Shown: positions 10,801-46,107, counted from the stretch's first letter. The stretch: 64,000 nt of DNA from Neocallimastix sp. 'constans' (GCA_050613775.1 JBODTK010000102.1:496001-560000), one strand, 5' to 3'. A program made the numbers and translations. Notes: generated by a model not told the origin, from the sequence alone.

Positions 10801-12722
10801 AAGAATAATAGTTTAAATAAGAATATATGGTGTTATTTTTATAATAATAATGTATTTTGAATTTTCTAATAAATTGATTAACAAAAAATAAATCAGTAGA
10901 TATATAATTTGAAATTAAAAATTTTTCTCTAAAATTTTGAAAATAAAATTTATTATTTTTAAAAAATTTAATTTGGAAATTCAACCAAACAAATTGCTCT
11001 AATTTGGTTGTTCTTCCTGAAATACCATTGATTAGGATTTTATTTTTTGTTCTTTGAAGTCTATTAATTATTTTTTTTTGGTTATTATTTCGATTATTAT
11101 TATTGTTATTATTACTAAAATAATTACTGCTAGTTTTATTTTTAGTATAATAATTATTATTATTATAATTCTTTTTATTGTTTATGTTTGGGCTTAAATG
11201 TTTCTTTCTTAAATTTTTATTACCATTATTATTTATTAATTGATCCTTACTTTAAATATTATTTTTAAATAAGATACTCTTAGTATAAATATCACCAAGC
11301 TTTGAAGGGAATTCCTCCATTTTTTCTATTTCTTCTTGGAACTTTGGGTAAACTTCATTATAGAAAAATAAGACTAAAGCTTCTTCATCACAAGACAGAG
11401 CAGTAGTTAACGTTCTAAACTTTTCTATATAATCATTTATTTTTCCGTACAAATGTTTTAATTTTACTAATTGGATTTTAGTCAATTTTTTACTTGCAAA
11501 ACTCTTAATTGTTTTCTTTATATCACTTATAAAATCCTTTAGTGTTTCTAGATGATTGTTCTAGTTATAGGTACCAAAATACCAATTTCTTGCTCCGTCT
11601 CTCAAACGACATTTGACAAAGGTTATTTTTACTAAGTTGGGATAAGTTGAGAAAGTATCTTCACATAATTGGCAGAATAAACCTGTTTGGGTTAGGGTTA
11701 TAAATATAGAAAATATTTCTATATTTATTACATAAAGTATTAGAAAATGATAAATAGTAACAATTACATTAACTTAGAAATTAACTAAAAGTGGTAATTG
11801 CTTATCAAAATTATTTTATATTTTATTATTTAATACTATTATTTACTATTTTTTTATTATTATTTATTATTATTATTATTATTATTTATTAATATTTATT
11901 ATTATTTTCTAGTTTAATAACTTTTCTAATAATTATAAATTATTTTTATTAACTAAATTAATAATTATTTAATTATATATTAAATGAATTATCAATTTTT
12001 ATATTTTATTAAAATTTTACTATTAAATTTTTTATTAACTTTGTTTATAATGATTTTATATATAATAAATTTTTATTAATTATTAATTATTTAGTATAAT
12101 CATTTAATGGAATAATTTATTTTTACAATTAATTTATTCAAATATTTCTAAACTATCCTAAACCATAGCTAAATTTTATAATTGTATTAAGCTATTTTAT
12201 TTTATATTTATTTAATTATAATGTTAAATAATTATTATTCATTTTTATTAATTTTTATAAATAAATTATCTAATTTATTTTGTTTTGTTTTGCTTATTAT
12301 TTATTATTTTATTAATTTAATAATTTAATAACAACGAAGAATAATTAAAAGAAATATTTACAAGTATTTATATTTTTACAAGAATTTAAAGTATTTAATA
12401 ATTTTAGTAAGAAAAAGAAATAAAAGAATAATTATATTTGATTATAGAAATAAAGAATAATAAAGAAATAAAAGAATAACAATAAAAAAATAAAGAAATA
12501 ATATCGTTGATAAGAATAATACTGTTAAAAGTTGTCTTTTAAAAATATTACAATATTTTTCTAGAAATTCGATTTTTTCAGAAGATCACGATTGATCTTT
12601 AATTTTAATTTTATTAAAGTGAATTATTTAAGGTTCAGATAATTTAATCTAATTTAAGGTTAAAAGTTAATTTTAAGTAAATTTAATTATAATATTTGAA
12701 TTTATAATTTCACTCTTCATCA
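7871..12722 (-). mobile_element. Degenerate Ty3/gypsy element (gag, RT, RNase H, integrase), with putative ~200-bp 5' LTR at 12523-12722
   Basis: Integrase 7947-8525 (PWKSIEIDF, TDRGSQF), RNase H 9053-9313 (HPVAYY, VHTDH), RT with YLDD mutated to Y*DD near 9795, gag 11252-11690. TG...CA block at 12523-12722. Confidence 0.88.
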
Positions 12723-12725
12723 AAA

Positions 12726-13519
12726 TGTATAGAATTAATTAAAATTATTTAAATATATCTTTAATTAATCCTTTCTACAATTAATAATTAAAATATTTTT
12801 AATTGAGATAAAAGAAAAAATAAAATAAATTGGAAAAAGAAAATATTTTATATAAAACTTATAAAGTTTATTATAAGATTATAATAGGCAACACCAAAAG
12901 ACAAGTTGAGTATATTAAGAATTTGTTTTATAATAAAAATAATTATTTAAAGTATTAAAAATAATTTTGTGTTAATTATTATAATTTCTTATAATAATAA
13001 CTCTTGATTATTTTTAGAAGAACCAAGAGTTTTATTTATATTAATTTAATTTATAATCTTGGAAAATTTTTTCTATCTTGAATAAGATTAGAAGAAAAAA
13101 CTAGAAAGCTTTCGATTGGTGTTTAATTACATTAATCTTTTGTTAATAAGAAAATCCGAATAAGGGAAAAAAACATATTAACTACTAATTAATTATATAT
13201 TAATTTTATTAATACTAAATCACAAGTATAATATAATTTAATAATTTCTTAATTAAATAAAATTATCATTTTAATATGATTTAATTTTCCTTAATTAAAT
13301 AGAGTTATCTTTATTTTAATACAATAATAAATTATTAAAATCTAATTTATTAATTATTGATAATTTAATTTAATGCAAATAAATTTTAAAAAAAAATTAA
13401 TAATTACTATATGAAATAATTAATTAAACTATTTATAAAAGTTTATAAAATAATAAACTTTAATTAATAATTTTTTAATAAAGAATAATTATTTTAGAAA
13501 ATATTTATAATTCTTTACC
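12726..13519 (-). mobile_element. Solo LTR, self-priming gypsy superfamily
   Basis: TGTA...TTACC termini, CAAAA on both sides, contains ATAATAACTCTTG..CAAGAG hairpin and AAGATTAG box. Confidence 0.75.
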
Positions 13520-13524
13520 CAAAA

Positions 13525-14504
13525 TGTAAGAATCTATAATTATTTTTAAATAAAATAATTATATTTTCTTAGGTAAGTTATAATAATTATTATTTTATTT
13601 AATTATATTATATTTATTTATTAAAATATTATTAATAATTTATTTAATTCAATTTTAGATATTCATTAATTTAATATAACAAAATTTAATTAATTAATTA
13701 TTATTTATACATTTATAAATAATTATAGTTTATTTAATTATACATTTAATTATTAAATTTATTAGTCTTATTTTATTTATTTAATTAAATTTTAAACAAA
13801 CACATTGTGTTTTCTATTATGTATTGTATTATGTATTTAATAATGTATTTTGTATTTTGTTTATTAATATTATTAATATGATATTTTCCTTATTTGTAAA
13901 TTTATGATTTTATGTAGAAATATCTATTATTATTTTATTCTTTTATTTTCAATCAATTAGATTAGAATAGTGAAACGGTTAATTAAGGTTTTTCTCAATC
14001 ACTTCTTAAAAGTAATTGGTTTTACCTAATTGATACGATGATCGATATGGATAGAATATCGATCAAAAGTTTTATATAGGTTTTTCTGTCTAATCTTTTC
14101 CTAGATAAGAAATTTGTTAAGATTAGAAAACGCTTTTTTTAATTTAACCTTACTTTTCAAAAAAGAATAAATAAGGCTCTTGAGTTCTCTTTGAGAAATC
14201 AAGAGTTATTATTATTACGATTATAATATAACAATTATAAAATAATAACAAAATTAAATATTTATATTTCTTATTTAATAAATTTTAAAATAAAAATAAA
14301 ATAAATAAAAAATTTTCTTCATAACAAATCCGTGTAACCTTTGGTATTTGTTTATTATAAATAGTTATAATAAACTCTTCAATATTAAGATAATTATAAA
14401 TATCTTATTTTATTTTACTCAATTTAATAATAATTTTTATAAAGTTATTATTAATTTGCAGTTAATAATTTAATTATAATTAATCTTATAATTAAATTAT
14501 TACA
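13525..14504 (+). mobile_element. Solo LTR, family A (same family as intact element 39186-46017)
   Basis: TGTAAGAATCTATAATT...AATTATTACA, collinear with 39186-40150; flanks CAAAA/CAAAG. Confidence 0.9.
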
Positions 14505-14513
14505 CAAAGAATC

Positions 14514-15066
14514 TGTAAAAGGTATGTCTATTATTAACTAATACAGGGAATAATAATTATTTTAAAGGCTAAAATATCTTAACACCTCTCTATTCGAGTT
14601 GTTAAAATAAATACTAAAATTAACTATAATTATTTATGTTATACACTTAAGAATATAGCGAAGCACTTTATAAGTTTATTTATTATTAGTTACTGGGATT
14701 ACACTAAGTTATTGTATTTATTTTTGATAATTAATTTTTATTTATTAATATTAATAATTATTTATAACAATTTACGTTAATAGTAATGCTAATACGTTAC
14801 AGTTATAAGTGCAATTATTTTTATACATGTAAATAAATTAATAATTGGTAAATAATTTAATTTAATATGAATTTCTAATCATTTAATAAAACTATATATA
14901 ACTAAATAACTATTAATAAAATAAACTATAAAATAATAAAATTTAATGTACGGAAATTAAGTAAAGATTTTATTTGATTAGTTAGAATTGCTTACTGTTT
15001 ATAGATACATTAGGTAACCAAAGAACTAACATTGGATAGGCTTAATGTTACCATGTATCTGTTACA
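14514..15066 (-). mobile_element. Solo LTR, family B
   Basis: Reverse complement of 16281-16830; TGTAAAAGG...CTGTTACA. Confidence 0.88.
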
Positions 15067-15067
15067 A

Positions 15068-15690
15068 TGGTACAGTATTGAAGAATTTTTATCATAAAAT
15101 AACATATTCTAATAACATAAGAATAAGAAAATTTTAAATACAATTCTCTTATTCAAATTCTATTATTCAAATTTAAAAATCTAAATATTAAATAGTTTAA
15201 ACTAAACTAAAATAACTAAAAATAATTTCTAACTTATTTTAAATAATTTAATTATTCAACTATAATTATTAACTCTAAATATTAAACGATAAAATTTTAA
15301 ATCACTTAAAAACAACACTAAAATTATTTTTAATTTAATTTTATTTAAAATAAACTATTTTATTTTTATTATTTAATCTATTCTAATTTTATTATTTAAA
15401 CTATTCTAATTTAATTAATTAAACTAACTTTATTTTATTTAATTATCTAAAATTTATTATTTAAATTCTAATAAAGTAAAAGAATAATATAATAATAAAG
15501 TTGTAAGAAAAAGAGAGAAAGAACTAAAGTATTGTACTACTTTGTTCTTTTTATACAATTAAAATAGTTATTTGATTGGATTAGATTTAATAATAAAATT
15601 TAATAAACTACTAAAATATTATTAAGTATTACAATATTAAATAAAAATAATAATACATTTATTGAATTTACTATAACTAATTTTATAACA
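15068..15690. mobile_element. Truncated LTR, family C
   Basis: Starts TGGTACAG and is collinear with 26971-27630; 3' end replaced by a family J fragment. Confidence 0.75.
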
Positions 15691-16274
15691 AGATTGGTAT
15701 TTATAAATTTTATTTAAAATAAGGTTAAATTTAAAAAGAGATTCTAATCTTAACAAATATCTTGTTTAGGAAATGATTAGAATAAAAACCTAAGCAAGCT
15801 TCAATCAATATTCTATTAATATCGATTTTCGTATCAATTAAGTAAAACAGAATACTTTCTAAAGTAATCGGGAAAATCTTATAAGACCTATTTCCTAAAT
15901 TTGAACTAACAAAAAGCTTACAACAAATTTAAAGGAATTATTTAGAACTAAGCCATAAAAAATTTATTAAATTATCTGATCATGATACGTAAATCTTAAT
16001 TTAATTATTGTACTATGGCTTTAAAGTAATAAATAATTAAACTAAACTAATTATAAAAAAAAATACAGAATTAAAAATACAGAATTAAAAATACAGAAAC
16101 TATTCACTTTTAATTTATGTATAAAGCTATATAAAATAAAAAATTTATAATTTAAATAATTAAATGTATAACTAAATAAAATTTATAATTTAAATAAATG
16201 TATCTAATGATTGTCATTACTAAAATAATAAATAATGATAATTATTTTTTAATAAATAATTATTATTTCTTACA
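15691..16274 (-). mobile_element. Partial LTR, family J-like (U3 part)
   Basis: Ends AATAATTATTATTTCTTACA, the reverse complement of the start of 25164; carries the conserved U3 boxes. Confidence 0.7.
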
Positions 16275-16280
16275 CAAAAT

Positions 16281-17900
16281 TGTAACAGATACATGGTAAC
16301 ATTAAGCCTATCCAATGTTAGTTCTTTGGTTACCTAATGTATCTATAAACAGTTAGCAATTCTAGCTAATCAAATAAAATCTTTACTTAATTTCCGTACA
16401 TTAAATTTTATTATTTTATAGTTTATTTTATTAATACTAATTTAGATATATATAGTTTTATTAATTTATTAGTAAATCAGGTTAAATTAATTTATTACCA
16501 ATCATTAAACTATTTATATGTATAAAAATAGCTGTACTTGTAATCGTAACGCATTAGCGTTTCTATTAACGTAAATTGTTATAAATAAGTATTAATATTA
16601 ATAAATAAAAATTAATTATTAAAACTAAATAAAATAACTTAGTGTAAGCCCGGTAACTAATAACAAAGAAAGTTATAAAGTGCTGTGCTATATTCTTAAG
16701 TGTTTAAAATAAATAATTATAGTTAATTTTAGTGTTTATTTTAACAAATCGAATAGAGAGGTGTTAAATTATCTTAGTTTTAAATTAATTAAATTCCCTG
16801 TATTAGTTAATAATAGATTTACCTTTTACAATAGTAACTCTTTATAATTAAATAATCGATAATAATTAAATAAAATTTAAAAGTAAGTAATAATTTAATT
16901 GATAAAATAGTTAAGTTTTTATTAAATAAAAATAGCAAGTCTTAGTACTTTTAATATTATATTAAAAGTTTATTTATTTTCTTTCTTTACTCATCTTTGT
17001 TTACTTTTTAAAAAAAATTTTGAAATGAATTTTACGCCACAATATGTTGTGAGCAAATCACGAAGAATTTCAAAAAAAAAAATTTTTCTTCTTTAAATTA
17101 AATTTTGATTAAAAATTTAAAAATATGAAATTATAAAAATTTCGTATATCAGAAATTTAATTTATTAATAATTTAAATATAAAAAATTATTTAAATTAAA
17201 AATTTAAAATTGTTGTTAGTACAGATTTTTAATTAATAAAAATTTTGTATTTCACTAAATAAAATCTTCTTTTGCTATCTAAGAGGTCATTTATTATATA
17301 AATTTATATATATAGTGACTCGGGAAGCGAAAGAAAATTTTTTAAATAATAATTTATTTAAATTATTAATACTTATATATTTAATTTTTCAAAAAAAATT
17401 TAATTTTTATTTTATTTCTTTTATTGATTTTTTTATTTATACTTATAAAAAATAAGTGAACATATATATATCAACTAAATAAATTTAAATAAGTGAACGA
17501 ATCAATAATTATTTAGTTAAATATAATTAAGTGAATACATTAATACAAGTTAAATAAAATTATAACAAAAGTAAATGGATAAAAAGAGCAAAAATTCCAA
17601 ACCACCAGATAATACGAGAAAAACCACAAGGAGTGGTTCTTTAAAAAGTTCGGTGGGTAGTGTGGTCGCAGAAAATAGCCCTACGCCTGTTTAAGATCCT
17701 TCAGCTCGACACCAGAATACAGGAGACAATAAAACAACAAGTACTCCTGAGAAGCCAGCTGCGGTGCCTGATGCTAAGAAACCTGAAGCTAACAAGCCAG
17801 AAACAAGTAAACCGGAATCTGGTAAGCCGGGACCACCCAAGGAATGAGCTCAAGTAAAAATAATAATGGTGAAGCTATATATTTTGCTGCTTTACTGAAT
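16281..17900 (+). mobile_element. Gypsy family B 5' fragment: 5' LTR (16281-16830), PBS-like ATAGTAACTCTT, leader and start of gag
   Basis: LTR TGTAACAG...CCTTTTACA; the gag start near 17575 (MDKKSKNSKPP...) is homologous to the minus-strand 52170-52490 region. Confidence 0.8.
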
Positions 17901-19424
17901 AAATAGTAATAAAGAATTTATGAATTAATTATTTATTTTATTTATATTATAATCTAATTAAATTATTAACTTTTAAGTCTTTTTAAAACAACAAATATAT
18001 ATAGCATTATTTAGCATATAAAGTTGAACTGGGCTTTCTACTGGTTGTTATGTGGCGGACTTAATAATCATATGGTGTCCAGCCAACCTCTGCTGGTATC
18101 TATTCTTGATCTGATTTTCCCGATAGGGTTTGGAGAAAGGGTAAAGGGGTTATAATGGCACGATTTCAGGTAAGTATTAATTCCGCTCCTACCATTATTG
18201 GATTGCCACATATTTAATCTCTATATTTGATCACATATAGTATCCTAGTGTAGTTGTATAGCCTATACTGAGAGGGTTACGAGTTCAATTTCTATAGGAT
18301 GGCATGGATGTTATTTTGCAAGACATGTCTACTGGAGCTACCTCTGCTTAGGAATTTGGAGCGCCGACGTCGTACTGATATAATATAAGATATATATATC
18401 AAAGTATATATGTTCTTTACACGCCCATATATATAATATGGGATAGACATGTAAATTCATATGTGTAAAAAACCTATTTATATAACTCTACAATACGGTT
18501 GCGATAATACATAAATAGTAATTGAAATGTGAACAACAAATTTTAATTTTTGAAATTTCAATTTACAGTTATAATTTATGTCTTATAAAAATATTATTTT
18601 GTAATTCTTATTATTATTTAATATTTTATTTATAAATTATTTATAAAATAAAAGGTTTAATCCTATTATTAAGATGTTATAATAACAACTAAAGTTTTAG
18701 TTATAATATAAAAAATTATTATTTTAAATAATATTAATTTAAATATAAATTTATAAAATAAAATTTTTTAATAATAAAATATAAAAATATTATATTGATA
18801 TTAATAATAAAATATAAAAATTTAAAAATATAAAAATATAATATTAATAGAAAAATATAAAAATATAATATCAATAATAAAATATAAAATATAAAAATAT
18901 AATTTAAATATTAATAATAAAATATATAAAAATAAGGTTATAAGGAAAATAATTATTTATCATTTTCCTTATAACATGATTGTCAAAAAAAAAATTATAT
19001 AAAAATATTTTATTTTTTATTGACCTTTTTAATTTTTATTTATTTATTTATTTACTTATTTATTTATACATTTATTTCATTTTTACTTAAAATTATATTA
19101 AATTTTATGGGCTAATAATATAAATTTTAAAAGACACAAATAAATAGATGGCATATTAAAATTTCAAAAAAAAAAAATTGGCGTTTTGGACCACATTCTA
19201 ATTTCAATATGTTAATAATATTTAGTCAATTAGTTGGCCTAGACTATTTCTTTAATAATTTAATAATAATTATTATATTATTAATTATTAATATTGAAAT
19301 TCAAATAACTGAATTATTAAAATTGAAATTGATTTTGAATTAAATGAAAATTCAGTTATTATCTTAACAAACCTTCATTTTTTTTTACCAAAATCTTATT
19401 TTAATAGTGGTATCGTATCATAAT

Positions 19425-20188
19425 TGTTAGAAATTGAAATAAAAATTCTTTTATAGCAATTTCTAATCCACAATTTTATTTTAATAATAATATTATTAAT
19501 TAAAATTGGGAAATTTTAAATTTGTTTTATTAAAAAAAAAATCGAGTTTATTATAAGAAAATTTAATTTATTTATTTTATTTTACCAATAAAAAAAAATA
19601 AATAAAAATTATTTTAAAATAAAAAAATTTATTATTATTATTAATATTTTAATTTATAAAATTTTATTGTTATTATTATTTTTCTTATAATAATAACTCT
19701 TGATTTTCGAAAGGAAACTCAAGAGTCCATTTTATATTTTAAAATATAGAAATAAAGAATTTTCTAATCTTAACAAAATACTTTCCAGGAAAAGATTAGT
19801 AGAAAAACCTGGAAAGATTTCAACCAATAATCTATACTTATTGGTTATCGTATTATTAAGTAAAACCATTTTTATGGAAAAACCTTAATAACCGATGTTC
19901 TAAATTACGTAAGTTAAACGGTTAAATTAATTCACACTTTAGCAATTTAACCAAATTAACTTATGAATAAAATTAAGAAAAATAAAAAAAATAGATACGG
20001 AACCGAATATAGAAATACATACAAAATAAATACAAAATGTATTTAATAAAATTTAATATATAATTTAATAAAATTTGTTACATTATTAATAATTAATTAA
20101 TTATAAAATTAAGTAAACTTAATAATTATTTTATAATTATTAACGATTAAGAAATATAGACTTATAACAATACGTCTAATTTCTTACA
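19425..20188 (-). mobile_element. Solo LTR, self-priming gypsy superfamily
   Basis: TGTTAGAAATT...AATTTCTTACA termini; ATAATAACTCTTG..CAAGAG hairpin near 19690; AAAAGATTAG box. Confidence 0.8.
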
Positions 20189-20194
20189 AGAATA

Positions 20195-21049
20195 TGACAC
20201 GAGCTGGGGTTGAAACACTAAGATATTCAAAACAAAAAAATAAATATTACCACATAACTATAAAAATAAATTTGGAAACAAGAAAAAATTAAATTTTAAA
20301 ATATTCCTTATTTAAATTTAAAATTAAAATTATTTGTTCCCCGTATTAAAAAGAAAGAAATTTCTTTTTCTTTTTATACTTTTATTTTAAAACATTTTAT
20401 TTATTATTAATATATTCTTTATAAAAAAAATTATTATAACTATTTTATTTTAATTTTTAACTATTATTTTAAATTATTTTTAAAAAAAATAACATTTATT
20501 AAATTAAAATATAAAAATTAATTTAGAAATTGTATCACGAAGGGCATTCCAGGCGGTAGCTTCTTCTTGATATTGTTTTCAGAGAGAGTATTATACAGAA
20601 TTGATATTTTCTGTATTTTAGATCATTTTTATTATTGAAATTCTTCTGTATTTTAGTTCATTTTTATTTTAATAAAGATTTAATTTATTTTTGATTTTTG
20701 TTTTATTTTTAGTTTATTTCAAAGGTTTTAGAAAATATTATACAGAAACTTATAAATCTGTATTTTATATCAAATATTTATTGAAATAGGTTTTTATTAT
20801 ACTTAATATAAAAATAAGAATTAGTAATGATTTAAATTATATATAGTTTTTAATAAGAATATTTAGTAATAATTTTTATTATATTTAATATTAATAAAAG
20901 AATTTTATATGAATAATTAATAATAATTTTTATTATATTTGATATTAATAAAAGAATATTTAATAGTAAAATTTAATAATAGTTTTTATTTTATAATTAT
21001 TAAGAGTATTTAATATGAAATACAAGGTATTTAGTGACACCCCGTATCA
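20195..21049. mobile_element. Solo LTR, family D
   Basis: TGACACG...CGTATCA; collinear with 27749-29588. Confidence 0.85.
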
Positions 21050-21052: not shown

Positions 21053-21284
21053 TGGTAGACTCGGGGTTGTATTTTAATATATACATATATTTAATAATAT
21101 AACAATAAAGTAATTAATTAAAATTGTTTTAACATTATTTACAAGTTAAAATTAATTTATATCAAAATAAATTAATTTTTATTATTAGGTTTAGGTTATC
21201 AAGAATATAGGAAAGTACAATTTAGTAAAAAATTATTAATAATATTTTATAATAAAATAAAGGTTATTAATTCATTCTTTACCA
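21053..21284. mobile_element. Short solo LTR (232 bp), family E
   Basis: TGGTAGA...TTTACCA inverted termini, AATT on both sides. Confidence 0.65.
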
Positions 21285-21287: not shown

Positions 21288-22250
21288 TGTAATAATTTAA
21301 TTATAAAATTAATTATAATTAAATTATTAACTACAATTCAATAATAACTAAATAATAATTTTTATTAAATTGAGAAAGCAAAAAAGATAAATATACTTAT
21401 CTACTATAAGAAAGAGTTTATTATAACTAATTGTAATAAACAAATAACACAGAATTGTCAAAGAGAAAAGATTATTTTATTTTATTTTATTTTTAAATTT
21501 GTTTTATTGAAACTTACTTTATTAAAATAGAAATATAAAATATTTATTAATGTTATTACTATATTATAACTGTTATAATAATAACTCTTGATTTCTCAAA
21601 GAGAATTCAAGAGCATTATTTATACTTTTTTGAAAAATAAGGTTAAATTAAAAAATGTTTTCTAATCTTAATAAATCTCTTATCTAGGAAAAGATTAGAC
21701 AGAAAAACTTAGATAAGATTTTTAATCGATATTCTATCCATATCGATCATCGTATCAATTAGGTAAAACCAATTACTTTTAAGAAGTGATTGGGAAAAAC
21801 CCTAATTAATCGATTCGCTAATCTAATCTAATTGATCGAAAATAAAAGAATAAAATAATAAAAGATATTTCGATCATAATATCATAAATTTACAAATAAG
21901 GAAAATAACATAATAATGATATTAATAAACAAAATATAGAATGCATTATTAAAATACATAATAGAATACATAATGTGTTTGTTTACAATTTAATTAAATA
22001 AATAAACTAAGACTAATAAATTTAATAATTAAATGTATAATTAAATAAACTATAATTATTTATAAATGTATAAATAATAATTAATTAAATAAATTTTGTT
22101 ATATTAAATTAATGAATATTTAATATTGAATTAAATAAATTATTAATAATATTTAAATGAATAAATATTATATAATTAAATAAAGTTATAATTATAACTT
22201 ACCTAAGAAAATATAATTATTTTATTTAAAAATAATTATAGATTATTACA
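21288..22250 (-). mobile_element. Solo LTR, family A
   Basis: Reverse complement of 39186-40150; perfect CAAAT TSD (21283-21287, 22251-22255). Confidence 0.92.
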
Positions 22251-22256: not shown

Positions 22257-22712
22257 TGGTACGTGATTGTACCTTGGGCTTATTGACACTACTCTAGTTA
22301 AGATAAATTATTCTATATTGAATAAACACAAAAATTAATAATTTTTATTTATTTATTATTTAAATATTTTTTTATTATTATTTTATTAATATTTTTTTAT
22401 TTATTATATTACTTAATTATACATTATTTTAATTACTACATTTTTATTATAATCTAACTAACTATATATTTTTATTTCTTATTATATCTCTTCTATACTA
22501 CATATTTTTATATCTTTTTCCTTTCATATTCTTTTCTTTCTAATCTCTTTTCCCCTTTTATAAATATTTTCTTATTTAAATCTTTTTATATTCCTTTTTT
22601 TATCTAATTTAAGGTTATAATTGTTTATTTCTTAAAAATTTAAATATTTAATCTTATAACTTTATTCTCAAATTTATTGCTTATTTCATTGTTATCAGGG
22701 CGGCCCGTACCA
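22257..22712. mobile_element. Solo LTR, family F
   Basis: Perfect 7-bp inverted termini TGGTACG...CGTACCA, AATT 4-bp TSD. Confidence 0.75.
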
Positions 22713-32947: not shown

Positions 32948-33395
32948 TCTTGCTTTTCTTTTTGCTATCTTGCCATTCGCATTTCTTTTATATTTGAAAA
33001 TCTATCTTGAGGAAATTACATTTGCATTTTTGGGTATATATTTAATTGTATTAAATACATTTAAGTTTTTCATATTACTTAATTCTTCATTTACTACATT
33101 AATTCATTTTTTTCTATCAGTAAAATTTTGAATTTCTTATAATTTTCTGATTCTCTTAAAGTATTTATTGTCTTTCTTCTTTTGTTATTATTTTCATTTT
33201 TTATATTCATAGTTGTTTTTTTATTATTGTTTTCGATATTATTTAATTTAAATGAATTGTTATTAGTCAATAAAGTATTTATAATTTCGTTTCCATTACG
33301 TTGAATATAATTTTTATTGATAATTGTGTTGTCATTTACTCTGCTGCTTTCAATATTATTATTGTTATTGATTATTTTATTGGCTGTATTATCAT

Positions 33396-35126: not shown

Positions 35127-35223
35127 CTCATTAAGTATTACTTCATTGTTGTTTACATACTCCTTAAATTTTCCTTTATGGACAGCTGTAATTATTTGTC
35201 CATTAGCTAGATTAATTTCTTCA

Positions 35224-36435
35224 TTACATTTTTTTTATGTCTATTAGAAGATTAAGATTGCTTGTGATATTGATTGAAGCACCGGAGTCCAAAATCCAAC
35301 ATGAAAGAAAGTTTTTGTCACTATCTTCATTTAAAAATTCTTTTTCAATGTTGCAGTAATTTAATTCAATATTATTTTCTGTATTACAATCTTTAGTAAA
35401 GGCATCTGCGTATATTGTGTCATAATTACTTGAAGAGGCATCATTAGTGTTCACATAATTAATATCGTTTTGAAATTTTCTTTTGTTTTTAGTTCTTTTA
35501 TTAAATTTATTTTTGTTTTGATTTTTATATAAATTATTTTTTCTGAATTTACATTCATAGAAGTAATGTCCTGTTCTTCCACAATAGTTACATCTTCCAC
35601 TACTCCTTTTGAGACTTTTTCTTTTACCTTTAGTTCTATTATTGTTTCGATAATTCTTGCTCTTTCTTGTTTCAGCATTGAAGAGAACATTATTGTTGTT
35701 TTCCTGAATGGAATTTTTTTCTTTTAAATTAGATAAAACGATATTAGGGATGATTTCCTTAACATAGGTGCAGCATGATTCCCAACTCTTATGTTGAAAG
35801 ACGTTTATCCACCTTAGATCTTCAGGTAAGCATCTATTTAGAATGCCGATTTTTGTATTTATACTAAGGTCATTGTCAATTTTCTCAAGTTCGTCTATTA
35901 AGTTTTGCAAATTGGCAATGAATATATTTATATCGGTCTTGGTGTCAAACTTCATTGTTTCAATTTTGTTTTGGATTTCGATTTTTCTTCTTTCCTTGCT
36001 TTTGGTAAACGATTCTTGGAAGATGTTCCAAATTTGAAAAGCGGTCTTTTCATTTCCATTTATTAGTTTTTGTGTTTGTTCTCCAAGCCCATTTATGATA
36101 ATCCATTTGGCCGTGATGTCGTTAGTTATATCAATGTTTTTAGTGTTCTTTTCATAAACTAACGAACTATCAAATTGATCCTCCGGGTAATCTGTTAATT
36201 CTTCTCTTATATCTCTCTTTCTTAACTTCTTTACAATTGGATGAAGGACATATTTGGTTAATTTATTTATTGTTAGCAAATACAGAATTTTTCTTCTCCA
36301 ACCAGGGTAGTTTTCTGTATTTAGTTCAGTAATTTGGTTGAAATTTTCGGAATAATTAAAGGTTATTCCGTTATGTGTAATATCTTCTCCGGTGAGGTTG
36401 ATAACTTGTTCTTGGTTTCTTCTTCTTCCAGCCAT
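35224..36435 (-). CDS. gag: Copia Gag with CCHC zinc knuckle and protease N-terminus
   Basis: CNYCGRTGHYFYEC zinc knuckle; WILDSGAS protease motif. Confidence 0.92.
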   Translation of the reverse strand: MAGRRRNQEQVINLTGEDITHNGITFNYSENFNQITELNTENYPGWRRKILYLLTINKLTKYVLHPIVKKLRKRDIREELTDYPEDQFDSSLVYEKNTKNIDITNDITAKWIIINGLGEQTQKLINGNEKTAFQIWNIFQESFTKSKERRKIEIQNKIETMKFDTKTDINIFIANLQNLIDELEKIDNDLSINTKIGILNRCLPEDLRWINVFQHKSWESCCTYVKEIIPNIVLSNLKEKNSIQENNNNVLFNAETRKSKNYRNNNRTKGKRKSLKRSSGRCNYCGRTGHYFYECKFRKNNLYKNQNKNKFNKRTKNKRKFQNDINYVNTNDASSSNYDTIYADAFTKDCNTENNIELNYCNIEKEFLNEDSDKNFLSCWILDSGASINITSNLNLLIDIKKM

Positions 36436-37859
36436 TTCGAGTACTTTTGAAATTTAAAATTTTTATTATTGTTTTAAATTAATTATATATTTTTTTTAAA
36501 ATCTCAATTAATAAAAATATTTTAGTAGTTTAAAAAAAAATATTATAATATTTAATTCTGTTAATTTTTATTAATTTATTAGTATTAATTTGTTATATTA
36601 AAAATTCTCATTTTAATTTTTACTTAAATTTGATTTCATTAATTTGTTACTATTTTTATCTCATTTAGTATTGTAATACCAAACTTTAATAAATAAGGCA
36701 TTTATATTATTTAATTTATTATTAATTTTGATTAAATAAAAGGTGATTATTATTTGATTAGATTTTTTATTTTTTATTCATTGATTAGTATTATAAATTC
36801 ATTTTAATATATTTGATATATTATATAATGTAATTTATTCAAAATTTTATTTAATACATATAATTAGTTTTTTTATTATTACTTTAATTTATTTATATTT
36901 TTTTTATATTAATAATATTTTAGTTTCAAATTTATCTAAATACCATCAGTTGACTATTTATTTCTCATCTTGATGATATTAGATTTAATTTAATTTAATA
37001 TTAGTATCATCAGTTGACTATTTATTTCTCATCTTGATGATACTGTGTTTATTTTATTTTAATATTAATATCATCACTTGACAATGAATTTTTCATCTTG
37101 ATGATATCATTTTTATTTTCTTTTAATATTAATATCATCAGTTGACAATAAATTTTTCATCTTGATAATATTAATTTTATTATTTAACAATTTAACTATA
37201 ATTTTATTTATTGTTGATTAAAAAAATCTTTATTTCTTATGGATTTGTTTCGGTAATAAATAAAATACAATAAATAATAAAAATAATAATTTATTAGTTC
37301 TTTGGTTTTATTGAAAGGTAAAAATAGAAAAATTTAATTTATATTATAACTTAACTTTATTTTAATTCAAACTCAATTAGTAGATTGAGACTCTTAATCT
37401 TTTAGACACATTAATGTTTATATAATTAAATAATAGTTTAATTTATTTATATTATAGATATTTTATTATTTATTAATATATTTTTTATGAAAATAGAACT
37501 AAAGAAAAACATATTCATTTAGAAAGCTTTTATACATGAATATTATTTATTAAATTAATTGATTGGTTAATATAAAATGAAATATAGTAAATATATTTTA
37601 ACATTATTTTATTATTTTATAATTATATATTAATAAATAATTTAAATAATTAAATTTTATAATTTTGTCAACAAATAAACCATAATAAATGGTTTAACAG
37701 AAAGCATTATCATTCAATCTAAATTGAACGGCTTCTGCTACTGGTGTTAGTGTTACACCTGTTGACCATTCTACATGTTAAATTATTATTTATTTATAAT
37801 TATTTTATTTATTTATTTATTTATTACTTACTATTTGTTATTTATTTATTTATTATTTA

Positions 37860-38215
37860 TTTATATTATTATTATTATTATTATTATTATATTATTATTA
37901 TTATTAAAATTACTTATTATTTGAAATTATTTAATTATTAAAAATAAAAATTTCAAATACTTATCTTTTTTAAATTATTTATTTATTTATTTAATTTATT
38001 TTGTTTATTTTTGTTTTTGTTTTTTGTTTTTGTTTTTGTTTTTTGTTTTTGTTTTTTGTTTTTGTTTTTGTTTTTATTTTTGTTTTTGTTTTTTTTGTTT
38101 GTTTGTTGCTTATTTTATTTTATTTTATTTTATTTTATTTTTTTTTTTTTTTAATAAGAAAATATATATATATAATGTATATAATGTATATAATGTATAT
38201 AATGTATATAATGTT
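37860..38215. repeat. Simple repeats (ATT)n, (TTTTTG)n, (ATAATGTAT)n inside element K
   Basis: Directly visible; they explain the low-complexity ORFs at 37744-38269. Confidence 0.9.
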
Positions 38216-39809
38216 ATATATAAAAACAATTATATAATATTAAAATATAATATAAATATAATATTATAATAGATAAATATGTTATATAAAATAAAATAAA
38301 GTAAAACAGTTAGTATTTAATATTGTTAATTTTTATGAAATTTATAAAGACTTATTTTTAAAAGTAAATAGGCAAAGTAAACAGAATAAGTGTTGTCATA
38401 TTATTATAAAGTTATAATGTTTTATATATATAATAATAAAGAATTGTTAGTCAATGTAATAATAAATTAAACAAAATAAATAATATATATATGACATAAA
38501 CAAACATAAACAATGAAAAGAAAAATAAAAAATAAACAAAAAAAAAAATTTATAAATTTAAATTGAGAGAAAGAAAAAATTTCGTAAATAATATAAAATG
38601 AATTTATTTAATTTAATTATTCCATTATAATTATAATTATTATTTTTTGTTATATTCATTTTAAATTATTTATAAAATATTTTCTTCCTAAAAAGAAGAG
38701 TTATTATTGTAAGAAATTACTTATAAAATTAATTATAAATAATTTCTTAACTACGAATTAACACTAATTATTACTAATTAACATTAATTTGAGAAAATAA
38801 AATTAAATATAATTAAATAAATATAAAATAATATAAATAAATAATTATACTTAACTTAAATATACGTTAGAGTTTATTATAGAAAGTTTATAATAAACAA
38901 TAACACAAAAGGAATAAAAGACACAAATATTTATAAAATACGTTTTATTAAAAAGGGTTTTGTTTATTAATTAATTATTTTATTTGAATTATTATTTATT
39001 ATAAAAATTCTAAAATAATAACTCTTGATTTCTTGAAGAGAACTCAAGAGAATCAAAAATATTTAAATTAATAATTAAATATTATTGGTTAAAATAAATA
39101 CAATAATTTAATGTATTAAATTAATGTATTAAATAAGAAAGATAGATAAATTTTATAATAAATTTATCTAAGTTTCTTACACAAATGTAAGAATCTATAA
39201 TTATTTTTAAATAAAATAATTATATTTTCTTAGTTAAGTTATAATTATAACTTTATTTAATTATATAATATTTATTCATTTAAATATTATTAATAATTTA
39301 TTAAACTCAATATTAAATAATCATTAATTTAATACAACAAATTTATTTAATTAATTATTATTTATACATTTATAAATAATTATAGTTTATTTAATTATAT
39401 ATTCAATTATTAAATTTATTAGTCTTAGTTTATTTATTTAATTAAATTGTAAACAAATATATTATGTATTCTAATATGTACTTAATAATGTATTCTGTAT
39501 TTTGTTTATTAATATCATTATTATGTTATTTTCCTTATTTGTAAATTTATGATTTTATGGTCGAAATATCTTTTATTATTTTATTCTTTTATTTTCGATC
39601 AATTAAATTAGATTAGCTAATCGGTCAATTAGGGTTTTTCCCAATCACTTTTTAAAAGTAATTGGTTTTACCTAATTGATACGATGATCGATATGGATAG
39701 AATATCGATCAAAAATCTTATCTAGGTTTTTCTCTCTAATCTTTTCCTAGATAAGAGATTTGTTAAGATTAGAAAACATTTTTTAATTTAACCTTATTTT
39801 TCAAAAAAG

Positions 39810-39856
39810 TATAAATAAAGCTCTTGAATTCTCTTTGAGAAATCAAGAGTTATTAT
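39810..39856 (+). promoter_or_regulatory. LTR TATA box, hairpin and putative transcript 5' end / self-primer
   Basis: TATAAATA at 39810-39817; CTCTTGA..TCAAGAG inverted repeat at 39821-39849; AAGAGTTATTAT at 39845-39856. Confidence 0.65.
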
Positions 39857-40150
39857 TATAACAATTATAATATAGTAATAACATTAATAAATTTTTTATA
39901 TTTCTATTTTAATAAAGTAAGTTTTAATAAAAAACAAATTTAAAAAAAAAATAAAATAAAATAATCTTTTCTCTTTGACTATTTTGTGTTATTAGTTTAT
40001 TATAATTAGTTATAATAAACTCTCTCTTATAGAAGATAAGTATATTTATCTTTTTTTTGTTTTCTCAATTTAATAATAATTATTATTTAGTTATTATTAA
40101 GTTGTAGTTAATAATTTAATTCTAATTAATTTTATAATTAAATTATTACA

Positions 40151-40162
40151 ATAATAACTCTT
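40151..40162 (+). promoter_or_regulatory. Primer-binding site, self-priming type
   Basis: ATAATAACTCTT follows the 5' LTR directly; no TGG; exact complement of 39845-39856. Confidence 0.78.
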
Positions 40163-40232
40163 ATCTAGAATAGATTAGTGTAGTACAAAGAAAATTTTAA
40201 ATAATACCAATATATTATTGAATTATGTAGTA

Positions 40233-40277
<45 letters not shown>

Positions 40278-40914
40278 TTTAAGATAAAACTTCAATATAT
40301 TTTTAATAATAAAATAATATAAAAATAATAAATTAAAACAATATATTAGAATAGAATAATTACAATAAAACGATACATATAGAATAGTCTAGAAATTAAG
40401 CAAAAAAAAAAAAAAAAAAAAAAATTTACATAAAATAATAATAAATTAAAACAATATATTAGAATAGAATAATTACAATAAAACGATACATATAGAATAG
40501 TCTAGAAATTAAGCAAAAAAAAAAAAAAAAAAAAAAAATTACATAAAATAATAATAAATTAAAACAATATATTAGAATAGAATAATTACAATAAAACGAT
40601 ATATATAGAATAGTCTAGAAATTAAGCAAAAAAAAAAAAAAAAAAAAAAATTTATATATTTGTACTATTATATATTAATGGATGGATAAATACATACTTT
40701 TAATAAATATATTACTATATATAAATGAATACATGACGTATATAAAATCACTATAATATATAAATAAATAAAACAAATAATATATATTGTGTAAATAGAT
40801 ATATATATATAAAAAAAAAAAAAAAAAAAAATTAGATAAACATAATTTATTAGAAATATTACAAAATTTTAAATCTACACTAATTATAATTTTTCACATA
40901 ACTTAATAAAACTA

Positions 40915-40950
<36 letters not shown>

Positions 40951-40954
<4 letters not shown>

Positions 40955-42384
40955 AAAACAATAGTGATATTCAAATTAATGAGCCTTTAGCAGACACACC
41001 ATCACCAATTTCACAGTCCATTACGTATAACGAAAATGCTTCTAAACTAATCTCTGCTATTACAGATTTCATACCTGCCTTCTTTTCGCCAAATGGAGTT
41101 CTTCAGAAAGAAAGTGATGTGAAAAACCAACCAAGTATTAGGGAAATAATTATCCATAGTGAAGACTTTATTAAGACTCATCCAAATACATTCAAAGATG
41201 ATGAGTCAAAAAACTCCTTTGTTATCAATAAACTAACAGGAACTGCAAGAAGATGGGGTCTCTCTTTGCTAACTGATGGGACTCTAAAGAAGTTAACATT
41301 TGAAAAATTCAAGAAACTTTTGTTAGAAAATTTCGATTCAGGTATTGAAAGGAAGCAGAAATACGTTATTATGGACAAATTGTGGAAGCTTAAACAATCT
41401 CAACTTGGTAGTGTCGCTGAATACACTATCGAATTCCGTAGGTTGGCGGGACGTCTTGGATGGCCTGACGAAGTGCTCATTGACATTATTGGAAAAGGAC
41501 TTGTGGATAAGGTGCGCGAAGAATTCGACAAGGTTGAGAAACCATCTACCTTGTTTGAAGCTACGAACACTATAATTGGAATAGATAAAAAATGTTATTT
41601 GGAAAGTAGTTTAAGGAATAAGACTAAGAATTTCAAGAAGAATCATAAATCCTTTCAAAAGAAGCGCAGAGAACTCACCAAAATCGAGAACTACAAGAAA
41701 CATTTTCACAATAAAAATAAACCTAAAAATGACATTCTCTCAGCCAACTATACTTCTAATGGAAACCCAACAATCACTACTGCCTTTTACTTAAATATAA
41801 ATGATAAAAATATTAGAACAAACTTTTTAATTGACTCCGGATCTGCTAGAAGTTTCATTTGTAGAAATTTCGCTAATAGTCACAAAATTCCATCATTAGG
41901 TTTATCCTCTCCAATTAATATCCAACTCCCAAATAGTAAAAGCATGAACATTAAACAAACTACAAAACCGCTTAAACTCAAGATTATGGACCATACAGAA
42001 CGTTTTGAATTTTGCATCGCAAACATAGCCCTCCAAGGAATCAATGGTATTCTTGGAAGAGATTGGCTCTCAGTTCATAATCCTTTCATTGATTACAAGA
42101 AAAATAAAATATTCTTTTTAGGTAAATACTGTGGTTCACATTGCCCTTCTTCAAGGAAATTCAAGTTCGCAAACCAAAACTCTAATTTCACTGCAACTAT
42201 GTTCGACAATCCCACAATTAACAATGCCGATCATGATTCTATCATTCCTGAATCAATCCCAGAAGATACTGTTTGTCATTCAGACTTGAGTGACTCCGAT
42301 TTATGTGCCGCTATGCCAACGAAAATAGACTCCGAAGGGAAAAAACCGAGGCATAAGAGAGATTCTCGACAAATACTATTCTGA
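40951..42384 (+). CDS. gag: Gypsy Gag (retrotrans_gag) plus aspartic protease
   Basis: KLTGTARRW, LKQSQLGSVAEYTIEFRRLA; FLIDSGSARSFI and ILGRDWL protease motifs. Confidence 0.93.
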
Positions 42385-42445
42385 TCTCATAATAGTATTT
42401 GAGAAAAATGAAGCTGAGAAGTTACCACCACACAGGGAATATGAT

Positions 42446-45043
42446 ATGTCAATTGATCTTATTCCTGGTGGCCAATTATTCTTCGGTCCAATCTACTCTC
42501 TTACCGTTCCGGAAATGAAAGCCTTGAAAGAGTATATTCAAGAAAATCTTAGAAAAAAGTTCATACGAAAATCAAAATCACCAGCAGGCGCTCCAGTTAT
42601 ATTTGTATTGAAACGCGATGGAACTCTCAGATTATGTGTCGATTATCGACGCTTGAATGCTATTACAATCCGTAATAGTTACCCGATTCCAAGAATAAAT
42701 GACTTAATGGAATCTTTTAAAGGTGCAATGATATTTACCCGTCTTGACTTAAGATCCGCCTACAACCTTATAAGAATTAAAGAAGGGCATGAATATCTTA
42801 CAGCGTTTAGAACTCCTTTAGGGCATTTCGAATATCTCGTAATGCCTTTCGGGCTTAGAAACGCGCCTTCCGTTTTCCAACGTTTCATTCATGATATACT
42901 TAACGACTGTATTGGTATTTTTGTTAGAGTTTACCTTGATGACATAATTATCTATTCCAAATCCTTAAAAGAGCATATTAACCATGTAAGAACTGTTTTA
43001 AAAATTCTTATTGATAATGGATTATATGCTAAATTAGAGAAATGTGAGTTTCATGTAACTGAAACCACATTCTTAGGCTTCACAGTTTCCAATAAAGGGC
43101 TAACTATGGATAAAAATAAGGTCAAATCAGTACTCGATTGGCCAAGTCCTAAAAATGTTAAAGAATTGCAAAGTTTCCTTGGATTATGTAATTTCTATAG
43201 AAAATTTATAAAAGACTTTGCAAAAAACATGGAACCCCTTCGCAAACTTTTAAAAAAGGAAAATCCTTTTATCTGGGATAAATCAGCTGAAGATGCTTTT
43301 CAAAAGTTAAAGGACTCTTTTAAAGCTGATGATTTTTTAATCTTTCCTGATCCTGATAAAGAATTTATAGTTGAAACCGATGCAAGTGATTTTGCAGTCG
43401 GATGTATACTTTCCCAGGTATCTAGTGAAGATAATCAATTGCATCCTGTGGCATTTCACTCCAGATCCCTTAATAAAGCAGAAGCTAATTATACTATCTA
43501 TGATAAAGAGCTTCTTGCTATTATTACTGCATTTGAAACCTGGAGACATCATCTTGAAGGTGCCAAGTTCCCAGTTCAAGTAATAACAGATCATAAGAAT
43601 CTGCTATACTTTAAAAAACCACAACATTTAAACCAACGACAAATTCGTTGGAGCCTTTTCCTGTCTAAATTCGACTATAGGATTGCGTATAGAGCTGGCT
43701 CAAAAAGTGGAAAGCCTGATGCTTTATCCAGGAGACCAGATTATAAATCCACACATCCCGTGGAACAACAATCCTTAATTAATAAGAATGCTTTTTGTTG
43801 TGCTACTAGCGATAATATAAGTAAACTTATTAAAGCACAGAAAGAAGACCAATATTGTCAAAATATCCTTTCTAAATTAAGAGATCAGTCGAAAAAACTA
43901 AATAGTTCTCTATTTACTCTCGTCGAGGGAATTCTTCATTTCCAAAAAAGAATTATTGTTCCATCTAGTCTCAGGGCATGGATTTTAAAATCCTTCCATG
44001 ATGCGCCTACTAGCGGCCACCAAGGGATAGAAAGGACCTTTGAAAAACTTAAAAGGTTCTACTGGTGGCCAAACATGAAGAAAGATGTTTCTAACTATGT
44101 TCTTTCGTGCAATGTCTGTTCCCGAAGTAAGATTCGGAGACATAAGCCATATGGTAAGCTAATACCACTTCCCATTCCTACAAAACCCTGGGAAGTAATT
44201 GGCGTGGATTTTATAGTCTCTCTGCCTTCTTCGCAAGACTGCACATGCATCATGATTGTTTCTGATCATTTAACAAAAATGGTCCATTTAGTGCCCTGCT
44301 CCGACGTTCCTTCCGCCGACCTAACCGCAAAATTACTGCTCTTCCAAGTCTTTAAACACCATGGTTTTCCAAAAGTTATTGTTTCCGACCACGGCTCTCA
44401 ATTCTCCTCCCAATTCTGGACCTCTTTATGTGATGCTATTAGAGCCAAACCAAGATTAGCAACGGCCCATCATCAGCAATCAAATGGTCAAGTGGAACGT
44501 GCCAATGCTGTTATTGAACAATATCTTCGTTGTTATTGTTCTTCCGCCCAGAATGAATGGTGCTATTATCTTCCCTTATGTGAAATGTCTTATAATAACT
44601 CCATCCATAAATCAATTGGCCAAACTCCTTTTCATGCTAACTATGGTTTCGATCCTAATTGTGTTATTGACTCCCCTCCTGTCTTACTAAGAGACACAGC
44701 TTCTATCCTTACTAGAGACTGGTCGTCACACTTTAATGCCCTCCGGCAACACTTAATAAAAGCCAAAGAAGATTTTAAGAAATATGCTGATAATAAAAAA
44801 TCTATAGGCCCTGACTTCAAAGTTAATGACTTGGTTATGCTTAAAAGATATTATTTTACAAATGAACCGTCCAAAAAGCTATCTTCTCAGTATCTTGGTC
44901 CATTTAAAATTATCGAAAAGGGGGAAAGAATGAATTACCGCTTGGAACTTCCAGAAAACTTACATCTTCATCCGGTATTTCATATCTCACAATTGGAGCC
45001 TTATACAGAGCGGAATAAAGAATTGAAAGAGCCATCATCGTAA
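42446..45043 (+). CDS. pol: Gypsy Pol: reverse transcriptase, RNase H, integrase (frame open from ~42329)
   Basis: LRLCVDYRRLN, MPFGLRNAP, VYLDD, ETDASDFA, HHCC (HDAPTSGH..CNVC), VDF/SDHGSQF/GQVERAN, GPF motif. Confidence 0.96.
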   Translation: MSIDLIPGGQLFFGPIYSLTVPEMKALKEYIQENLRKKFIRKSKSPAGAPVIFVLKRDGTLRLCVDYRRLNAITIRNSYPIPRINDLMESFKGAMIFTRLDLRSAYNLIRIKEGHEYLTAFRTPLGHFEYLVMPFGLRNAPSVFQRFIHDILNDCIGIFVRVYLDDIIIYSKSLKEHINHVRTVLKILIDNGLYAKLEKCEFHVTETTFLGFTVSNKGLTMDKNKVKSVLDWPSPKNVKELQSFLGLCNFYRKFIKDFAKNMEPLRKLLKKENPFIWDKSAEDAFQKLKDSFKADDFLIFPDPDKEFIVETDASDFAVGCILSQVSSEDNQLHPVAFHSRSLNKAEANYTIYDKELLAIITAFETWRHHLEGAKFPVQVITDHKNLLYFKKPQHLNQRQIRWSLFLSKFDYRIAYRAGSKSGKPDALSRRPDYKSTHPVEQQSLINKNAFCCATSDNISKLIKAQKEDQYCQNILSKLRDQSKKLNSSLFTLVEGILHFQKRIIVPSSLRAWILKSFHDAPTSGHQGIERTFEKLKRFYWWPNMKKDVSNYVLSCNVCSRSKIRRHKPYGKLIPLPIPTKPWEVIGVDFIVSLPSSQDCTCIMIVSDHLTKMVHLVPCSDVPSADLTAKLLLFQVFKHHGFPKVIVSDHGSQFSSQFWTSLCDAIRAKPRLATAHHQQSNGQVERANAVIEQYLRCYCSSAQNEWCYYLPLCEMSYNNSIHKSIGQTPFHANYGFDPNCVIDSPPVLLRDTASILTRDWSSHFNALRQHLIKAKEDFKKYADNKKSIGPDFKVNDLVMLKRYYFTNEPSKKLSSQYLGPFKIIEKGERMNYRLELPENLHLHPVFHISQLEPYTERNKELKEPSS

Positions 45044-46034
45044 AAGGAGCAATGTAAGAATCTATAATTATTTTTAAATAAAATAATTATATTTTCTTAG
45101 TTAAGTTATAATTATAACTTTATTTAATTATATAATATTTATTCATTTAAATATTATTAATAATTTATTAAACTCAATATTAAATAATCATTAATTTAAT
45201 ACAACAAATTTATTTAATTAATTATTATTTATACATTTATAAATAATTATAGTTTATTTAATTATATATTCAATTATTAAATTTATTAGTCTTAGTTTAT
45301 TTATTTAATTAAATTGTAAACAAATATATTATGTATTCTAATATGTACTTAATAATGTATTCTGTATTTTGTTTATTAATATCATTATTATGTTATTTTC
45401 CTTATTTGTAAATTTATGATTTTATGGTCGAAATATCTTTTATTATTTTATTCTTTTATTTTCGATCAATTAAATTAGATTAGCTAATCGGTCAATTAGG
45501 GTTTTTCCCAATCACTTTTTAAAAGTAATTGGTTTTACCTAATTGATACGATGATCGATATGGATAGAATATCGATCAAAAATCTTATCTAGGTTTTTCT
45601 CTCTAATCTTTTCCTAGATAAGAGATTTGTTAAGATTAGAAAACATTTTTTAATTTAACCTTATTTTTCAAAAAAGTATAAATAAAGCTCTTGAATTCTC
45701 TTTGAGAAATCAAGAGTTATTATTATAACAATTATAATATAGTAATAACATTAATAAATTTTTTATATTTCTATTTTAATAAAGTAAGTTTTAATAAAAA
45801 ACAAATTTAAAAAAAAAATAAAATAAAATAATCTTTTCTCTTTGACTATTTTGTGTTATTAGTTTATTATAATTAGTTATAATAAACTCTCTCTTATAGA
45901 AGATAAGTATATTTATCTTTTTTTTGTTTTCTCAATTTAATAATAATTATTATTTAGTTATTATTAAGTTGTAGTTAATAATTTAATTCAAATTAATTTT
46001 ATAATTAAATTATTACAACAAATTAAAACAAATT

Positions 46035-46107
46035 ATCCGAATAGTGTAGTGGTTATCACGTTTGCTTTACATGCAAAAGGTCTCCGGTTCGAACCCGGGT
46101 TCGGGTA
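46035..46107 (+). tRNA. trnV-UAC: tRNA-Val (anticodon UAC), 73 nt, intronless
   Basis: Acceptor ATCCGAA/TTCGGGT, D-arm GTGTAGTGGTTATCAC, anticodon arm TTTGC-TTTACAT-GCAAA, T-arm TCCGG-TTCGAAC-CCGGG. Confidence 0.95.

Follow-up and report, generated by a model that had tools for sequence, protein, structure and literature searches.

A polarised stack of LTR-type elements upstream of a single tRNA-Val gene in the gut fungus Neocallimastix

Some retrotransposons with long terminal repeats (LTRs) integrate at the start sites of genes that RNA polymerase III (Pol III) transcribes. Such targeting is established for Ty3, Tj1, Tca8, Tyl3/6, Ylt1 and DGLT-A (PMC5911963). Before the mature tRNA, Dp_DGLT-A.1 inserts at 13-16 nt and Dd DGLT-A at 13-33 nt (PMC5006619). 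Ty3 inserts 2-3 bp before the transcription start via Brf1 and TBP; it docks on TFIIIB by two domains, an SH3 domain binding TBP and a vestigial chromodomain, required for activity, binding Brf1 (10.1101/2021.07.27.453949). Schizosaccharomyces japonicus has ten gypsy families clustered among its tRNA genes (PMC4600332), and in Dictyostelium discoideum a newly arriving TRE5-A lands between the tRNA gene and an older element, giving un-nested tandems; of 98 genes already occupied, 91 took a further hit (PMC5391098). A literature search that left most subscription papers outside its reach found no tRNA targeting in anaerobic or early-diverging fungi and no deep stacks of LTRs, and the accessible part of a preprint on S. 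osmophilus holds nothing on stacks. Here we describe a locus in Neocallimastix sp. 'constans' (GCA_050613775.1 JBODTK010000102.1:496001-560000; this whole stretch of 64,000 nt is called the window) where about 21 LTR-type units are stacked before one tRNA-Val gene.

The window has a GC content of 9-37% and is nearly all transposon DNA. Its sole tRNA match is tRNA-Val(TAC), whose mature +1 lies at 46035, and all distances below are counted to that nucleotide. Each of the last 14 units landed 13-17 nt before this gene, and we consider it probable, at roughly 85%, that the gene set the site, likely through docking of their integrases on the Pol III start complex (TFIIIB). The stack is listed here from the gene outward, with distances and target-site duplications (TSDs).

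46035-46107, plus strand: tRNA-Val(TAC), anchor of the stack (ARAGORN; Rfam RF00005, 60.4 bits)
46018-46034, plus strand: 17-nt spacer with the target site; -10 to -1 common to all reconstructed states
39186-46017, plus strand: unit 14, near-intact Ty3/gypsy element; 5-bp TSD at -17 to -13
29592-39181, minus strand: unit 13, self-priming LTR pair; 5-bp TSD at -16 to -12, split by unit 14
31349-37603, minus strand: Ty1/copia element nested in unit 13, off the target site
27749-29588: unit 12, LTR-like, with internal tandem repeats, 91% like unit 2; 4-bp TSD, 14 nt
26971-27745: unit 11, LTR-like, with 80% likeness to unit d; duplication irregular, of 1 nt; 13 nt
26144-26969: unit 10, LTR-like, 72% like unit 11; 4-bp TSD, 13 nt
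25164-26137, plus strand: unit 9, solo LTR belonging to the self-priming group, 71% like unit 14; 5-bp TSD, 15 nt
24560-25159: unit 8, LTR-like; 4-bp TSD, 14 nt
23634-24554, minus strand: unit 7, solo LTR belonging to the self-priming group; imperfect 5-bp TSD (1 mismatch), 15 nt
22717-23629: unit 6, LTR-like; 4-bp TSD, 14 nt
22257-22712: unit 5, LTR-like; 4-bp TSD, 14 nt
21288-22250, minus strand: unit 4, solo LTR in the unit-14 family (divergence 4.4%); 5-bp TSD, 16 nt
21053-21284: unit 3, LTR-like, 232 bp; 4-bp TSD, 14 nt
20195-21049: unit 2, LTR-like, of the unit-12 family; imperfect 4-bp TSD (1 mismatch, due to the -12 change), 13 nt
19425-20188, minus strand: unit 1, solo LTR belonging to the self-priming group; imperfect 5-bp TSD (1 mismatch), 15 nt
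16281-19420: fused f/g, f being an LTR (16281-16830) plus leader and start of gag
15068-16274: fused d/e, half an LTR of the unit-11 family joined to half an LTR of the self-priming group
14514-15066, minus strand: unit c, solo LTR, an inverted copy of f's LTR (8.7% diverged)
13525-14504, plus strand: unit b, solo LTR in the unit-14 family (divergence 8.9%); imperfect 5-bp TSD (1 mismatch)
7923-13519, minus strand: unit a, most distal, an LTR (12523-13519) plus decayed gag-pol

An initial annotation of the window had described the last 14 units as TG...CA elements in both orientations with 1-6 nt between them, and so they are: they span 19425-46017, with gaps of 6, 3, 3, 6, 4, 4, 5, 4, 6, 1, 3, 3 and 4 nt and 17 nt left before the tRNA gene. 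Its estimate of about 11 families was slightly low, as all-against-all BLAST gives 12 among these units and approximately 16 among all 21. The seven older units it saw extending back to 12523 are also present (a to g, with d/e and f/g as fused halves, and g an element separate from f). Units 1-12 are single LTR-sized units, so that among the last 14 only units 13 and 14 keep LTR pairs. The termini of units 7, 9 and a are mutated, and unit 12 is doubled in length by AT-rich tandem repeats (28300-29550) absent from its relative, unit 2. A self-primer motif occurs in eight units and in both orientations, on the plus strand in b, 9 and 14 and on the minus strand in a, 1, 4, 7 and 13. At least three gypsy lineages, together with a class of units flanked by 4-bp TSDs, share the target site.

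The junctions were read by peeling off the stack, i.e., units were removed one by one from the tRNA side and the duplications read at each restored site. This restores TSDs of 4 or 5 bp for 13 of the 14 units, and 55 of their 58 nt match. When the order of the junctions was shuffled (20,000 trials), mismatches averaged 21.8 and never fell below 8, as compared with the 3 observed, and no trial was as good. The insertion distance is 13-17 nt before +1 in all 14 units, and it tracks the length of the TSD: 15-17 nt for the 5-bp units (6/6) and 13-14 nt for the 4-bp units (7/7). The odd one, unit 11, has a 1-nt duplication, or else a 4-nt duplication missing three bases at its own end. Peeling also confirms that the TSD of unit 13, called element K in the initial annotation, was split by unit 14.

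What the site looks like is a different matter from where it lies. The junction bases had been taken for overlapping windows of ACAAATTA, positions -17 to -10. Some of them are, but TAAT, AGAATA, ATATT, TATT and ATATTA are not, and these record earlier states of the site. Seven of the 14 TSDs take in one or two terminal bases of the preceding LTR, as had been noticed; letters -17 to -14 are rewritten by LTR ends, and -10 to -1 are fixed. To this extent the proposal that LTR ends regenerate the target holds for the letters. As the sequences of the TSDs vary, however, the position most likely depends on the gene. Position -12 is A at four old junctions (between a and b, e and f, g and 1, and 1 and 2, the first two with an assumed register), whereas every one of the 11 younger junction copies extending over this position has T; a mutation of the live site is thus recorded between units 2 and 3.

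A local score of forward against mirror order (39 vs 28) discriminated poorly, and a test of the full order was used instead. Taking the units from the tRNA side first costs 3 mismatches, while the mirror order, though its anchor was left free, costs 7. Random orders (3000) average 9.1 mismatches, two of them tying at 3 and none going lower, and swapping neighbours worsens the fit for 6 of the 13 pairs, leaves it tied for 7 and improves it for none. Ages run the same way. The LTRs of unit 14 differ by 0.1% and those of unit 13 by 0.4%, the copies of the unit-14 family have diverged by 4.4% (unit 4) and 8.9% (unit b), and unit a is decayed. The youngest element adjoins the tRNA and the decayed one lies farthest from it, in agreement with the order given by the TSDs. 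Within the chronologically ordered array that the initial annotation proposed, the TSDs strictly order only 6 of the 13 neighbouring pairs.

Parts of unit 14 are present in 22 public sequencing runs, mostly of feces or gut metagenomes. Five of these were compared; X17 (one low-identity piece) and X19 (tRNA uncovered) were not used. Five distinct flanks of other tRNA-Val copies, from six of nine rows among the matches listed, were compared by eye. One of them, from run X1, has a 17-nt exact match to the end of unit g at 14 nt from +1, the same distance that g's end shows in the window. A second carries, 15 nt from +1, an end similar to that of the unit-14 family (15 of 19 nt). These two distances, along with the 3-mismatch order and the ages, bear out the idea of serial insertion at a fixed distance from a tRNA gene with the newest element next to it. 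Run X1 also has a unit-14-type LTR end followed after 6 nt by the start of unit 6, and runs X1 and X2 have head-to-tail joints within one family, with 5-nt gaps, which may come from LTR circles. T46072 in the window, corresponding to position 38 of tRNA-Val, is C in all contigs of runs X1, X2 and X6. The gene in the window is a variant copy that was still targeted in recent times, and the runs, which also lack the downstream flank of this locus, likely represent other strains.

A number of points weigh against serial targeting of the gene or narrow its reach. For the 7 tied pairs, the TSDs fit either order, so the order of the stack is only partly fixed by them. Peeling needs an exception for unit 11, without which the register is lost from there on; the chain is untraceable across the f/g and d/e fusions; and the gap between b and c, at 9 nt, gives no clean fit. 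Two of the other tRNA-Val flanks show only ...TCA of no assigned family, at 12 and 15 nt, and one of the five has no LTR end. The locus itself was not seen in the other runs, in which the downstream flank is uncovered and 46072 is C (X1, X2, X6). The evidence for targeting is limited to tRNA-Val (one locus and five flanks). Also, the element at 52288-53373 that is 74% like f adjoins no tRNA detectable by a scan of the window, and the units with 4-bp TSDs (2, 3, 5, 6, 8, 10, 11 and 12) carry no coding DNA here.

With the gene setting the site, the stack most likely grew as follows. The internal promoter of the gene would recruit TFIIIC and then TFIIIB onto whatever sequence lies upstream, and because TFIIIB would be rebuilt by the internal promoter, the landing site would survive each insertion. 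Intasomes of several families would cut at the start site marked by TFIIIB, a docking step that we infer from the known systems; some units may have been integrated in trans by the integrase of another family. Each newcomer would land between the gene and the previous element, duplicate 4-5 bases and push the older copies outward. Most units would then shrink to solo LTRs by recombination between their LTRs, and the old end would decay, deletions fusing neighbours. For the host the array likely has no function and is a by-product that it tolerates.

Perhaps not all of the units are of the same kind. It could be that only the 5-bp units are LTR elements targeted to tRNA, and that the 4-bp units are other DDE elements aiming at the same spot, e.g., non-autonomous, Ginger-like DNA transposons. 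The 4-bp units do differ in TSD length and distance class, they are without coding sequence, and they have TGA and TGG termini. Their exact terminal inverted repeats, however, amount to only 2-9 nt and do not extend further, in the manner of LTRs rather than of elements with long inverted termini, and unit g contains an internal, GC-richer stretch. We regard this explanation as unlikely, though it fares better than those that follow. We take the 4-bp units, which occur only singly in the window and have short inverted repeats that fit LTRs, for putative LTRs.

It is a good deal less probable that the elements home on existing LTR ends, or on the A/T-rich sequence those ends regenerate, the tRNA gene having merely seeded the pile. 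One might think so from the TSDs that contain the last bases of the preceding LTR (7/14), from the LTR-LTR joints found elsewhere (X1, X2), and from the order ties (7/13), which would allow insertions in the middle of the stack. Homing of this sort does not explain why the distance stays at 13-17 nt while the sequences of the TSDs vary, nor why the forward order fits better than the mirror and than all but two of 3000 random orders. Moreover, the -12 change divides old junctions from young, and g's end recurs, again at 14 nt, before another tRNA-Val gene whose spacer differs.

Very improbable is broad insertion with survival only at this site, by selection or recombination, part of the array having arisen from unequal recombination between LTRs. 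The whole window is indeed rich in transposons, and the adjacent units 10 and 11 belong to one group and are separated by an odd gap of 1 nt. But neighbouring units belong in general to different families, lie in both orientations and have their own TSDs, which recombination does not make, and selection cannot yield a 5-nt window 14 times; for units 1-14 the explanation is largely refuted. An assembly artefact that stitched repeats together is scarcely credible: the DNA is very AT-rich and repetitive and no read in the runs compared spans the locus, but misassembly would give neither 13 nested TSDs that match, nor a point change that can be dated, nor a gradient of age, and the same types of junction occur in independent runs.

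Preferring the gene-set site, we turn to the element that used it last. Unit 14 is a Ty3/gypsy element by its organisation: Gag and the order protease, reverse transcriptase (RT), RNase H (RH), integrase (IN) between LTRs, with TG...CA termini, primer-binding site (PBS), polypurine tract and TSD. Its LTRs (39186-40150 and 45053-46017) have 1 mismatch in 965 nt. Gag and protease (40951-42384) and RT-RH-IN-SH3 (42329-45043) were recognised by their Pfam domains and lie in different frames; they overlap at 42329-42384, near a short G/A run, where relatives have single open reading frames. The break in frame may be a mutation, a sequencing error or a programmed shift. The PBS at 40151 has 12 nt complementary to a site within the element's own LTR, a self-priming layout of the Tf1/Tj1 type, and a 12-nt match between PBS and an LTR site downstream of a TATA-like box is found in both units 14 and 13.

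The clade of the unit-14 Pol (18 rows, support 1.0) has integrases that end 14-24 amino acids after the SH3 motif (16 of 18 measured), that of unit 14 itself after 15, and unit 14 has no canonical chromovirus chromodomain. Related clades retain it (PF00385). Presence of the domain was taken from Pfam annotation, a regular-expression flag having been discarded as unreliable. The tree comprises only database homologues, 7 of 119 having been left out because of short matches, and its deep branches are poorly supported; neither the direction nor the number of chromodomain losses is claimed from it. Aligned with the Pol of Ty3 (PDB 7q5b; E 4e-141), unit 14 matches only through the SH3 domain, and the alignment shows no vestigial chromodomain of the Ty3 type after it. 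With no chromodomain, docking would likely proceed via the SH3 domain or some other surface rather than via a vestigial chromodomain as in Ty3.

Scans of metagenome, viral and prokaryote collections gave only chance or irrelevant matches. Scanning for the LTR-start motif brought up 100 stretches in metagenome contigs and 3 in viral contigs, but none of these 103 was a real LTR copy, and BLAST gave just two low-complexity matches. A scan with Pol found no relative in viral contigs, and in prokaryote genomes its 10 weak matches, RT-like and bacterial, were rejected as relatives. A relative of the unit-14 polyprotein, P0183, is filed at NCBI under a bacterial metagenome-assembled genome, a record that is likely a misbinned fungal contig.

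Other lineages in the stack are less complete. The LTRs of unit 13 (29592-30062 and 38709-39181) differ by 2 mismatches and 4 gap nt, and no gypsy Pol was found inside the unit. The Pol of unit a belongs to a second gypsy lineage, 35-52% identical to that of unit 14, and its relatives appear to have a diverged chromodomain, weakly supported (hhalign 49%, E 1.7e-4; Atlas 0.92 to Chromo clusters). A third, distant gypsy lineage is represented by the downstream relative of the f/c family, a decayed element at 48.5-53.4 kb; no complement of the self-primer was found in the LTR of f. The LTR of the decayed element is related to c and f; near 53416 it has a possible end, with TGG beginning 1 nt beyond, much as at the junctions of the stack. 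Perhaps 53190-53430 is another stack, older and since deprived of its tRNA. AT-rich repeats in both orientations at 53923-57158 and 59884-60347, surrounding another decayed gypsy at 57.4-58.7 kb, are probably the LTRs of a further family.

The window also holds four copies or pieces of copia (914-4274, 31349-37603, 46469-47846 and 7217-7788; likeness 91%, 77% and 65%). None of the four is at the tRNA target site, that at 31349-37603 being nested inside unit 13. Among 120 matches listed for the copia RT, the named eukaryote homologues are all from Pecoramyces (10/10), which, with the low GC content and the runs from feces and gut, fits a host that is likely one of the Neocallimastigomycota. Beside the copia 5' LTR, 37380-37400 and 4050-4075 seem complementary to the anticodon arm of a tRNA with a CTT (Lys) anticodon, which suggests priming by half a tRNA-Lys.

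Whether the locus exemplifies something larger is, in our judgement, an even bet: that many gypsy lineages of anaerobic gut fungi (free of a chromodomain, with a vestigial one, or of the 4-bp-TSD class) share the tRNA start as a landing site, that long polarised arrays logging transposon activity in order occur at tRNA genes genome-wide, and that the youngest lineage reaches TFIIIB free of a chromodomain, by a route unlike that of Ty3. If so, precise tRNA targeting, seen in yeasts and amoebae, would reach a fungal phylum that branched off early (Neocallimastigomycota), and a single 5-nt window would be the point on which many families converge. Each stack would give the relative order of transposon bursts with no need for a molecular clock, and stacks at tRNA genes may explain where AT-rich gut-fungus genomes park their LTRs. 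An integrase that finds the Pol III start in the absence of Ty3's chromodomain would make the question of tethering testable and could serve as a tool for safe-harbour integration in those fungi that are difficult to engineer.

CRISPR arrays and the HeT-A-TART arrays of telomeres also grow from one end and so are polarised and chronologically ordered. The initial annotation called the stack CRISPR-like, and the geometry is indeed similar, but a CRISPR array consists of a constant repeat, foreign spacers and Cas1-Cas2, whereas the stack has no constant repeat and its units are transposon pieces of 0.2-9.6 kb. It has no dedicated acquisition machinery and no sign of a host function, and the likeness is one of analogy only.

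The closest relatives in behaviour are the targeted elements themselves. DGLT-A, a dictyostelid Ty3/gypsy element, inserts like the stacked units within a narrow window and in either orientation (PMC5911963), and it too has several families per genome, a short integrase tail without chromodomain and many solo LTRs (PMC5006619). It differs in having an amoebozoan host, 2-32 copies per family and a putative tRNA PBS rather than self-priming; more than one element per gene is mentioned, but no deep stack in the text available (PMC5006619). Ty3 resembles unit 14 in its gypsy Pol, SH3 domain and narrow window at the Pol III start, and differs in its approximately 100 extra C-terminal residues with the vestigial chromodomain and, as compared with the stack, in being one family that forms shallow stacks. 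Tj1 of S. japonicus shares with unit 14 a self-priming PBS, a 5-bp TSD and a position directly upstream of tRNA genes, but it has an ascomycete host and LTRs of 244 bp, and the accessible account does not describe its clusters as ordered end-to-end stacks (PMC4600332). TRE5-A is a non-LTR element of one family inserting approximately 47 nt upstream, and its tandems, as far as that source goes, are not multi-family arrays 20 deep (PMC5391098).

The initial annotation knew of no stack described at this depth and diversity of families, and none turned up in the literature searched, but the outward pushing of older elements has been published for the tandems of TRE5-A (PMC5391098). What sets this locus apart from the published cases that were found is its depth, its approximately 16 families from at least three gypsy lineages, its two lengths of TSD, the phylum of its host, and a youngest element whose integrase is free of a chromodomain.

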